Of a stretch of DNA of 14,261 nucleotides, positions 1,392 through 4,323 are shown piece by piece. Made by a program: the position numbers and the translations under genes. This DNA comes from a virus. The stretch lies in the UHGV virus genome UHGV-0247634, one strand, 5' to 3'. The notes beneath the pieces were generated by a model. That model was not told the DNA's origin and searched no databases. It saw only the letters and a program-made list of their open reading frames with translations. Within the stretch, counting starts at the first letter, position 1. Each line of letters starts with the position of its first letter.

Positions 1392-1742
1392 ATGCCATCA
1401 CGAATACCCCGCGCCTGCCGTAAGCGTGGATGCGCAGGTACAACCACAGACAGTTCTGGTTACTGCGATAAACATCGTGGTGAAGGATGGGCACAGCACC
1501 AGCGCGGACTGAGCCGCCACCAGCGTGGCTATGGCTCAAAATGGACGGTGATTCGTGCCCGTATTCTGAAGCGCGATAAAGGTCTGTGTCAGTTGTGTCT
1601 GCGTGTCGGTGTGGTGAGCGAGGCGAAAACCGTCGACCACATCATCCCGAAAGCGCATGGCGGGACAGACGCAGACAGCAACCTGCAGAGTCTGTGCTGG
1701 CCCTGCCACAAAGTGAAAACAGCGCGCGAACGAATCAGGTGA
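1392..1742 (+). CDS. HNH endonuclease, terminase-associated type
   Basis: 116-aa ORF with Cys-rich zinc-finger-like pairs (CRKRGC...CDKH, CQLCL, CWPCH) and HNH core DHIIPKAHGG...N...H. Located directly upstream of the putative cos region and terminase genes, as in HK97-like packaging modules. Confidence 0.9.
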   Translation: MPSRIPRACRKRGCAGTTTDSSGYCDKHRGEGWAQHQRGLSRHQRGYGSKWTVIRARILKRDKGLCQLCLRVGVVSEAKTVDHIIPKAHGGTDADSNLQSLCWPCHKVKTARERIR

Positions 1743-1889
1743 TAATTATTCTCACTTGTGGGGAGGGGCGGGTCAAATCCCTGCAGCCCTGGCTGTCCGG
1801 GACCGCCCGCCAACCCTTCTTCGCATCGCCGCAGGTTCGAAAACTTTTTTTTGGGAATGCGATCAAACGATTGATAGGTAAAACCGATT
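1743..1889. other. putative cos / terminase recognition region
   Basis: 147-bp non-coding gap between the HNH gene and the small terminase gene. G/C-rich core with imperfect inverted repeat GGGCGGGTC (1765-1773) and GACCGCCCGC (1801-1810), a T8 run (1846-1853), and an IHF-core-like ATCAAacgaTTG (1862-1873). Exact cohesive-end position cannot be determined from sequence alone. Confidence 0.4.
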
Positions 1890-2372
1890 ATGTCAGGACC
1901 CCCGAAAACCCCGCCACGCCTGCATTTGATACGAGGCAACCCCTCAAAGCGCCCCGTTAAAGACCCAAAAAAAACCGCTAAAAAGGATGAAAAAGGTCTC
2001 CCTAAAATTCCGCAGCATTTAGGGGTGCAGGGGAAGTACTGGTTCAGGCGAATGGCGGAAGAACTGAATGCGGAAGGGATCATTTCTCAGCTTGATGCGC
2101 GTGCACTCGAGTTACTGGTGGAAGCCTACACCGAATACCGGCATCACTGCGAAACACTTGATGCTGAGGGTTATACCTACCGCACGGAAACGCAGAACGG
2201 TGATGTGCTGATTAAGGCACACCCGGCTGCTGCGATGAAAGCGGATGCCTGGAAGCGGATCCGGGCGATGCTTGCAGAGTTTGGTATGTCACCGGCAAGC
2301 CGGGCGAAAGTAAATACCGCCGGACCGGATGATGTTGATCCGCTGGCGGAACTTTTAAAAGCGAGAGACTGA
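1890..2372 (+). CDS. terminase small subunit, P27 family
   Basis: 160-aa ORF. N-terminus MSGPPKTPPRLHLIRGNPSKRPVKDPKK matches the characteristic GRPPKP...L.GNPGKRP signature of P27-family small terminases as I recall it. Stop overlaps the large terminase start (ATGA at 2370-2374). Confidence 0.85.
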   Translation: MSGPPKTPPRLHLIRGNPSKRPVKDPKKTAKKDEKGLPKIPQHLGVQGKYWFRRMAEELNAEGIISQLDARALELLVEAYTEYRHHCETLDAEGYTYRTETQNGDVLIKAHPAAAMKADAWKRIRAMLAEFGMSPASRAKVNTAGPDDVDPLAELLKARD

Positions 2373-4129
2373 TGGCAAAAGTGGCTGACGGGATCCGCTA
2401 CGCCGAACGTGTTGTTGCAGGAGAAATTGTCGCTGGCGAATTTGTCCGTCTGGCCTGCCAGCGTTTTCTTGATGATCTGAAGTACGGCGAAGAGCGGGGG
2501 ATTTATTTCAGTGAACCCCGTGCGCAGCACATCCTGAATTTCTACAAATTTGTGCCCCATGTAAAAGGGGCGCTGGCAGGCCAGCCCATTGAACTGATGG
2601 ACTGGCATGTATTTATCCTCATTAATATTTTTGGTTTTGTCATTCCGCTGGTCAATGAAGAGACCGGGGAAGTTGTCATGCGCAGCGATGGCAGCGGACG
2701 TCCGGTGATGGTGCGCCGGTTCCGGACGGCGTACAACGAAGTCGCCCGTAAAAACGCAAAATCAACCCTGTCATCGGGTATCGGCCTGTATATGACGGGG
2801 GCAGATGGTGAAGGCGGGGCTGAGGTGTATTCAGCTGCAACCACGCGTGACCAGGCCAGAATTGTGTTTGAAGACGCCAAAAATATGGTCAGAAAAGCCC
2901 GGTCGACACTCGGGCGATTGTTTGATTTCAACAAGCTGGCGATTTACCAGGAGCAGAGCGCATCAAAATTTGAACCGCTTTCCTCGGATGCAAACAACCT
3001 GGACGGTCTGAACATCCACTGCGCCATTATTGATGAGCTGCATGCACATAAAACCCGTGATGTGTGGGATGTTCTGGAAACGGCAACCGGTGCCCGTCTG
3101 CAGTCCCTGTTATTTGGTATCACCACGGCAGGCTTTAACAAGGAAGGGATCTGTTACGAGCAGCGTGATTACGCCATTAAGGTATTGCGTGGCTATAACA
3201 GCAACGTGGAGGGCGCGGTAAAAGACGACTCCTACTTTGCGATCATTTACACGCTCGATGAGGGAGATGATCCGTTTGATGAAACGGTCTGGCAGAAAGC
3301 GAATCCCGGCCTGGGCATCTGTAAACGCTGGGATGATCTGCGTCGTCTGGCGAAAAAAGCGAAGGAGCAGGTTTCAGCGCGGGTGAATTTTTTCACGAAA
3401 CACATGAATGTGTGGGTCACTGCCGAATCTGCCTGGATGGACATGATTAAGTGGGAGAAGTGCGAATATATTGCTCCACAGCATGAGCTGAAAACCTATC
3501 CCATGTGGGTCGGCGTCGACCTTGCTCATAAGATTGATATCTGTGCGGCGGCAAAACTCTGGCGAACCGATAACGGACATGTTCATGCTGATTTTAAATT
3601 CTGGCTCCCGGAAGGACGGCTGGAGCGGTGCTCGCGGCAGCAGGCAGAACTTTACCGGAAATGGGCCGAGATGGATAAGCTCATCCTGACGGATGGTGAT
3701 GTTATCGATCATGCTCAGATAAAAAGTGACTTACTGGAATGGATTGGTGGTGAAAACCTGAGGGAGCTGGGATTTGATCCGTGGAGCGCGATGCAGTTCA
3801 GTCTGGCGCTGGCTGAAGAAGGGATACCGCTGGTGGAGGTTCCGCAGACGGTCCGCAATCTGTCAGAGGCCATGAAGGAAACGGAATCACTGGTCTATGC
3901 CGGGCGTTTCCATCACAGCAATCACCCGGTCATGAACTGGATGATGTCTAACGTTACGGTAAAACCGGACAAAAACGACAATATCTTCCCGAACAAATCC
4001 ACGCCGGAAGCCAAAATCGACGGTCCTGTTGCGATGTTTACAGCAATGAGCCGGATGCTGGTCAATGGCGGTGAACCGGAGCCGGATCTGTCTGAGCATC
4101 TGGTCAGCGTTGGTATCCGCTCGCTTTAA
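2372..4129 (+). CDS. terminase large subunit (ATPase plus nuclease)
   Basis: 585-aa ORF immediately after the small terminase. Walker B-like hhhhDE ([10 protein letters not shown]) in the N-terminal half and an acidic RNase H-like nuclease motif ([12 protein letters not shown]) in the C-terminal half. Size and position typical of TerL. Confidence 0.93.
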
Positions 4130-4140
4130 CCGAGGTCATT

Positions 4141-4323
4141 ATGTTTCTGATAATTCTCACACCACTGGTTGGCGTGCTGGGGGCGCTTTTGCTGTCGTAT
4201 GGCACATGGCTGATTTATCCCCCGGCAGGTTTTGTTGTTGCCGGGGCGCTGTGCCTGTTCTGGTCGTGGCTGGTTGCTCGTTATCTCGATCGCGGTCAGC
4301 GGGTCGCCTCCGGAGGTGAGTAA
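4141..4323 (+). CDS. hypothetical small membrane protein (two predicted TM helices) between terminase and portal
   Basis: 60-aa ORF ([49 protein letters not shown]...) with GC-rich third-position codon pattern like neighbouring genes. Stop TAA overlaps the portal ATG (TAATG at 4321-4325). No family recognised. Confidence 0.5.

Follow-up and report, generated by a model that had tools for sequence, protein, structure and literature searches.

The question raised by this locus is what role is played by the 147 bp of non-coding DNA (positions 1743-1889) lying between the gene of an HNH endonuclease and that of the small terminase subunit (TerS) in the virus genome UHGV-0247634, which was analysed here as a window of 14,261 nucleotides. 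A preliminary description of the DNA had placed the ends of the virion genome in this gap. The comparison with related phages makes it very probable that this gap serves an Escherichia coli prophage as cos site, in a packaging system of the HK97 type assisted by the HNH protein; the prediction of the genome ends follows from homology to the end of HK97, to the cos-site annotated in phiP27 and to the virion end of SfI. The element belongs to a class that is already known. In its left half it hardly differs from the cos annotated in phiP27, and it shares its right half with phi467, mEp235 and Hendrixvirinae of Klebsiella and Morganella. The signal of the region that rises above chance is its conservation in related phages, and not the repeat or the IHF motif to which attention had been drawn at the outset.

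The genes of the window follow the order lysis genes, HNH (1392-1742), gap, TerS (1890-2372), large terminase subunit (TerL), portal, protease and capsid, with a holin and an M15 endolysin encoded upstream of the HNH gene. The head module was recognised by Pfam matches to Phage_portal, to the Peptidase_S78 prohead protease and to a Phage_capsid protein of HK97 fold, and HK97-gp10_like and connector proteins are likewise encoded in the window. The assignment of the order HNH, gap, TerS, TerL to an HK97-type module was thus upheld both by the protein families and by the same order in HK97 itself. The core of the gap is GC-rich, as had been noted, with 70% GC at 1760-1840 compared with 52% for the whole window. 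The segment 1100-2400, which covers HNH, cos and TerS, was matched in 1025 of 5426 complete E. coli genomes, and the matches were chromosomal at 1140 of 1142 places; the best one was 98.8% identical, and the RefSeq annotation at that place shows the same genes. Since nearly all of the matches are chromosomal, the window is a lambdoid/HK97-like E. coli prophage or its circularised form, in which the lysis end is joined to the head end. In a prophage the cos site is internal, and for this reason the lysis genes adjoin the head genes here, as the preliminary description had expected of such a junction.

Two small reading frames of the window were also observed. The first, of 68 amino acids, is on the minus strand at 1124-1330, between the lysis genes and the HNH gene, and sits in a low-GC stretch (900-1350, about 42-44% GC). 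Its product is small and very hydrophobic, with two apparent membrane spans; it had no match in Pfam or PHROG, is labelled hypothetical by RefSeq in E. coli C311, and looks like a moron. The second, of 60 amino acids, lies at 4141-4323 between TerL and portal and matches PHROG 502 ('membrane protein', moron category, E 1.6e-25); L37 of phiP27, in the same position, is annotated as a membrane protein.

The terminase genes were assigned to families as follows. TerS (1890-2372, plus strand) matches Pfam PF05119 Terminase_4 (E 4.5e-26) and PHROG 83 (E 1e-54); its score of 91.6 bits against PF05119, for a curated cut-off of 24.7, places it in the P27 family. The L35 protein of phiP27 fits the same model, and the homologues carry the label 'phage terminase small subunit P27 family' in their sources. 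We know of no solved structure and no defined binding site for a TerS of this family. TerL (2372-4129, plus strand) contains the ATPase and nuclease domains (Pfam TerL_ATPase, TerL_nuclease) and is 29% identical to HK97 gp2 over 455 amino acids (E 5e-41).

On the TerS side of the gap, a conserved block CGCCGCAGGTTCGAAAACTTTTTTTTGGG occupies 1827-1855 on the plus strand, that is +14 to +42 from the predicted cut. It reads CGCCGCAGGTTCGAAAAC-T8-GGG and contains the T8 run (1845-1852), which had been pointed out before and proved to be both real and conserved. The block is nearly invariant in nine phages, with one C/A position and two variable T positions, while the TerS proteins of the same nine phages are only 57-99% identical. 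At this place each of the other TerS clades has a conserved block of its own, TTTTTAyACCCGCGAAA in phiP27, SfII and ST64B, and CTAACCCGATTTTTT in HK97. As published for HK97, the minimal TerS site extends from +15 to +29 and comprises a G:C contact and an A-tract, with T16, C:G at 21 and the A-tract at 24-29, the cut falling between -1 and +1. By analogy, the block 1827-1855 is a probable candidate for the TerS recognition site, and the T8 run is best read as its A-tract part. Compared with HK97, an additional 8 bp separate the T-tract from the cut, and the assignment is therefore one of analogy. Since the right block changes with the TerS clade while the left part and the core are shared, left part and core appear to go with the nicking machinery and the right block with TerS.

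Between this putative TerS site and the TerS gene lies an IHF-like motif, and it was considered whether IHF bends the DNA at ATCAAacgaTTG (1862-1873) and thereby aids the assembly of terminase as at lambda cosB. The motif, previously described as ATCAAACGATTG, is indeed present at 1862-1873, the IHF core ATCAANNNNTTR occurring on both strands and the full WATCAANNNNTTR on the minus strand, but it is neither above chance nor conserved. The two core matches both fall on one palindrome, ATCAAacgaTTGAT (1862-1875), against 0.99 matches expected, and 54 of 200 shuffled sequences did as well. The ATCAA of the motif is changed to ATTAA, AACAA, ATTGA or ATTTA in most of the prophages with a TerS at least 97% identical, and is absent from the more distant relatives in Klebsiella and Morganella and from mEp235, all of which keep the rest of cos. 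A term search through the full text of Fung et al. 2022 (PMC9410871), which describes reconstituted HK97 packaging in vitro, found no mention of IHF. A role for IHF at this place thus seems unlikely; a conserved IHF site of the kind found in a lambda-type cosB was rejected, the core being at chance level and unconserved, and the palindrome is probably without a role in cos function.

The predicted position of the cut in the gap rests on three independent anchors. The first is the 10-bp cos-site CGCCCGCCCC annotated in the phiP27 record, which aligns to 1804-1813. The second is the HK97 record, which ends with GGGGGGGGATCAAATC, 23 bp and GAC followed by CGCCGCCAAA, these last 10 nucleotides also aligning to 1804-1813, and restarts with GTTTGAATTT / GTTTGAATTTAACGCTAACCCGATTTTTTT right of the cut. 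The published HK97 positions fit the numbering of this record exactly, and therefore its last 10 nucleotides are the 10-nt 3' overhang. The third is the virion DNA of SfI, of which run-off sequencing left a 10-nt gap TGCCCGCCCC, a string found in the same register in SfII, SfV and ST64B. All three anchors put the 10-nt end directly after a conserved GAC, and GAC or TAC immediately precedes the end in one register in all 12 phages compared. The homology thus shows the predicted cleavage of the window as GGAC|CGCCCGCCAA|CCC: the conserved left flank GGAC is at 1800-1803 (plus strand), the bottom-strand nick is predicted between 1803 and 1804, the cohesive end CGCCCGCCAA occupies 1804-1813 on the plus strand, and the top-strand nick is predicted between 1813 and 1814. 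The end is predicted to be a 3' overhang, by analogy with HK97, for which 10-nt 3' overhangs are given in the legend to Figure 1 of Fung et al. 2022 (PMC9410871) and in Chechik et al. 2024. The Discussion of PMC9410871 gives 10-nt 5' overhangs for lambda and 12-nt 3' overhangs for HK97; the two numbers appear to be swapped.

The 10-mer is conserved in its 5' part (YGCC(C)GCC) and varies in its last two or three bases; thus the predicted bottom-strand nick has conserved surroundings and the top-strand nick variable ones. Prophages (loci L014-L093) with a TerS at least 97% identical were found to differ in the 10-mer, with at least four versions: CGCCCGCCAA, CGCCGCCTGA, CGCCCGCCTA and CGCCGCCTTG. 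Because CGCCGCCTGA occurs in close relatives with the same terminase, the nicks could lie one base away from the predicted positions. Recombination has joined phiP27-like and phi467-like left halves at several points of the gap, the 10-mer included, which makes the cos region a mosaic junction. No other copy of the cut-site core was found in the window. Among the records and contigs of close relatives none ends at the predicted cut, mEp235, SfII, Fraca and the IMG/VR contigs being linearised elsewhere.

It seems quite unlikely that cos lies in the gap with nicks or an overhang of another geometry, for example with nicks a few bases away, with a cut close to the left G-box or with an overhang of 5' polarity. 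Such a reading could draw on the variation of the 10-mer among phages with nearly the same terminase, on the unconserved context of the top-strand nick and on the SfV record, which is not trimmed at the 10-mer. It is opposed by the coincidence of the end of the HK97 record, the phiP27 annotation and the SfI run-off data in the same register after GAC, and by the overhangs of HK97, which are 3' and 10 nt long.

In the Escherichia phage CharmingMan (PP925830, L013:488-513) the cut-site core is inverted, TTAGGCGGCGGTCC standing in place of GGACCGCCGCCTAA. The inverted segment is 26 bp long and is bounded by GCGCC...GGCGC; when it is flipped back, the register of the family and the 31-bp spacing to the left box are restored. 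The inversion may be genuine, or it may have arisen during assembly at the cohesive ends.

The left side of the gap contains a box composed of the G-run GGGGAGGGGCGGG and TCAAATC (1760-1779, plus strand), which is conserved in all 12 phages, including HK97, where it reads GGGGGGGGATCAAATC. In each of the 12, which comprise HK97, phages of the SfV/phiP27-like kind and phages with a P27 TerS, the distance from the start of its TCAAA to the first cohesive-end base is exactly 31 bp, although the approximately 23 bp between the box and GAC vary among them. The spacing was also scanned in IMG/VR with GGTCAAA, a gap of 13-33 bp and GACCGCC, which gave at least 120 loci. Among the matches listed, a gap of 23 bp was the mode (22 matches, compared with about 5 for every other length), and 15 of these 22 are preceded by the G-run and followed by a T-run, their right-hand sequences being of several kinds. 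Lying 31 bp, or about three helical turns, upstream of the end, the left box would constitute a further protein-recognition element, placed like cosQ of lambda. It is tempting to go further and to regard it as a distinct, apparently undescribed cos subsite, at which the nicking complex of TerL and HNH docks and which, in a manner similar to cosQ at termination, sets the bottom-strand nick in GAC|CGCC, the top-strand nick being placed by distance; this proposal is tentative, and we consider it possible and less probable than its opposite. If it is true, the distance from the bound protein places the top-strand nick, the sequence of which is not read, and this would explain how one terminase tolerates both CGCCCGCCAA and CGCCGCCTGA.

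A shorter conserved motif, TTCTCACTTG, is found at 1749-1758 (plus strand), just after the stop codon of the HNH gene. It is kept in relatives, with counterparts TTCTCAyTTG or TTCTCAACTG in phiP27, SfII, ST64B, 733R5, KPNMC05, Fraca and CharmingMan. A weak, imperfect inverted repeat of 19 nt (1701-1719 with 1749-1767, 74% complementary) spans the same stop codon, and its right arm includes TTCTCACTTG.

The HNH gene (1392-1742, plus strand) was assigned from Pfam, PHROG, its motif and alignments as the counterpart of HK97 gp74, the terminase-associated nicking enzyme. Its product of 116 amino acids matches PF01844 (E 1.2e-15) and the HNH family PHROG 144 (E 4.5e-43), and the motif CxxC...DH...N...CxxCH, with its zinc-binding CxxC pairs and the catalytic residues of the beta-beta-alpha metal type, is intact (C66xxC69, D82-H83, N97, C102xxC105-H106), so that the HNH gene directly upstream of the 147-bp gap is as it had first been described. 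The closest solved structure is the nicking HNH endonuclease of GVE2 (5h0m), with which the protein aligns over the full length (E 5e-13) and whose H93, N109 and H118 align with residues of the motif. The protein is 34% identical to HK97 gp74 over 70 amino acids and 98% identical to L34 of phiP27.

That this protein is a free-standing homing endonuclease with no part in packaging, lying near the terminase genes by accident, is very unlikely. The label 'homing endonuclease' is borne by the homologue in several phage records, and in at least one relative, the Morganella phage IME1369_02, the gene adjoining cos upstream is not annotated as HNH. Nevertheless, the 116-aa HNH adjoins cos upstream in nine named phages (phiP27, phi467, mEp235, SfV, ST64B, 733R5, KPNMC05, CharmingMan and HK97), and it resembles both the GVE2 HNH and gp74, which stimulates the cleavage of cos in HK97.

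In Morganella phage IME1369_02 (L006:991-1330) the full cos is kept, with left box, core and TerS block, and a small hypothetical ORF follows the holin in the place directly upstream of cos; HNH is therefore not always next to cos. In the Escherichia phage PhiR49_2 (PV340570.1 17732-19484) the 1.1-kb query of HNH, cos and TerS was spread in two pieces over about 1.75 kb, with extra 'hypothetical protein' genes, a pattern that points to DNA inserted between HNH and cos. In phage Evi (LR597642.1) the query was also matched in two pieces, and two features are labelled small terminase.

The inverted repeat noted in the gap raises the possibility that the GC-rich repeat and the T8 run act as a terminator of transcription, or as a hairpin of some other kind in RNA or DNA, on the way from lysis genes and HNH to the terminase genes. 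Both arms are present, GGGCGGGTC at 1766-1774 (and not at 1765-1773 as first given) and GACCGCCCGC at 1801-1810; perfect complementarity is limited to 6 bp (GGCGGG at 1767-1772 with CCCGCC at 1806-1811), and a longer pairing needs a bulge. The repeat was not reported by a search with a minimum length of 8. Minimum-energy folds do pair GGCGGG with CCCGCC, and the T8 run lies downstream; the T-run begins, however, 34 nt after the stem, and scanning of 1000-2400 gave no terminator-like site. The folds of 1758-1816 as DNA (z = -0.82) and of the whole gap as RNA (z = -1.65) were no better than those of shuffled sequences, no Rfam covariance model matched 1000-2400 at E up to 1, and a tRNA scan found nothing. 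Although the repeat is real, its pairing is not conserved: among 11 phages the arms pair over 8 bp in phiP27, SfII and ST64B, 6 bp in the window, 5 bp in most and 3 bp in HK97, and no compensatory changes were seen in them. A hairpin or cruciform as a conserved structure was rejected because the fold z-scores are weak and the pairing is lost among the phages, almost entirely so in HK97, and a terminator or hairpin as the function of the gap is highly improbable. The right arm is the cut site itself and the left arm lies inside the left box; the repeat looks incidental, a consequence of a G-rich box and a C-rich cut site standing opposite each other.

Headful packaging, with the conserved sequences of the gap serving as a pac site or only for regulation, is highly improbable, the TerL being homologous to the cos enzyme of HK97 and the sequence and register of the cut site being common to phages with defined cohesive ends.

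The preferred reading, a cos site of HK97 type, is also consistent with the comparison with individual phages. HK97 shares with the window the order HNH (gp74), cos, TerS (gp1), TerL (gp2), a left box made of a G-run and ATCAAATC at the identical 31-bp spacing from the cohesive end, a GAC followed by a 10-mer of the CGCC(C)GCC type at the genome end in the same register, and an A/T tract downstream of the cut. It differs in its TerS, gp1 matching no Pfam family whereas the TerS of the window is of the P27/PF05119 type; in the sequence right of the cut, which is unrelated and has its T-tract at +24 to +30 compared with +32 to +39 in the window; and in the longer gap of about 320 bp between HNH and cos. 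In the phage phiP27 (NC_003356, Stx2e), identity to the window is 96% across the HNH gene together with the left part of the gap and reaches 98.6% in the left 69 bp of the gap, and 8 of 10 bases of the cos-site are the same. Its homology to the window ends inside the 10-mer, where the TerS/TerL module changes: phiP27 has its own right-hand cos sequence, and its TerS and TerL are only 20% and 38% identical, respectively.

The Shigella phages SfV, SfI, SfII and SfIV and the Salmonella phage ST64B have the left box, the spacing and GAC with the 10-mer in common with the window, the SfI end being the TGCCCGCCCC already mentioned. Their 10-mer begins with T in place of C, both of their terminase subunits are of the phiP27-like clade, and their right-hand block is TTTTTATACCCGCGAAA. 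On the other side stand the E. coli phage phi467, the vB_Eco induced prophages, mEp235 and the Hendrixvirinae of Klebsiella and Morganella, which have a TerS of the same clade (57-99% identical) and the block CGCCGCAGGTTmGAAAAC-T-run, but mostly 10-mers of the CGCCGCCTrA type in place of CGCCCGCCAA and a different stretch from the T-run to the start of TerS. The cos of lambda (cosQ-cosN-cosB), in which a nicking site is followed by a TerS-binding region downstream and accompanied by a further element upstream, has its logic in common with the window; it is unlike it in its 12-nt 5' overhangs, the lack of an HNH partner, the unrelated TerS Nu1 and the need for IHF (site I1).

On the basis of HK97, the biochemistry of which has shown that the gp74 HNH stimulates the cleavage of cos and that the ends are 10-nt 3' overhangs, the following course of events may be proposed for the window. 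The P27-family TerS would bind 1827-1855 downstream of the cut, where a GC-rich element is followed by the AAAAC-T8 tract, and its contact would combine base-specific recognition of the GC element with a deformable A-tract. TerL, moving along the concatemer from the HNH side, would stall on TerS, so that the cut site enters the nuclease of TerL, and TerL and HNH would then make two staggered nicks, leaving 10-nt 3' overhangs. From the same end, with TerS bound to it, a further genome would then be packaged in the direction of the head genes.

The present results leave the existing knowledge of packaging unchanged. Only two points are mildly new: that the left box keeps a fixed spacing of 31 bp, and that there is a candidate recognition block for TerS of the P27 family. 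The left box at its fixed spacing, the nick site and the block specific to the TerS clade together form a map, open to testing, of a cos of the HK97 type with a P27 TerS. As an aid to annotation, the data set the predicted start and end of the virion genome for a widespread family of E. coli prophages, and, as relatives carry Stx2e, correct linear maps and packaging predictions may be of some practical use.
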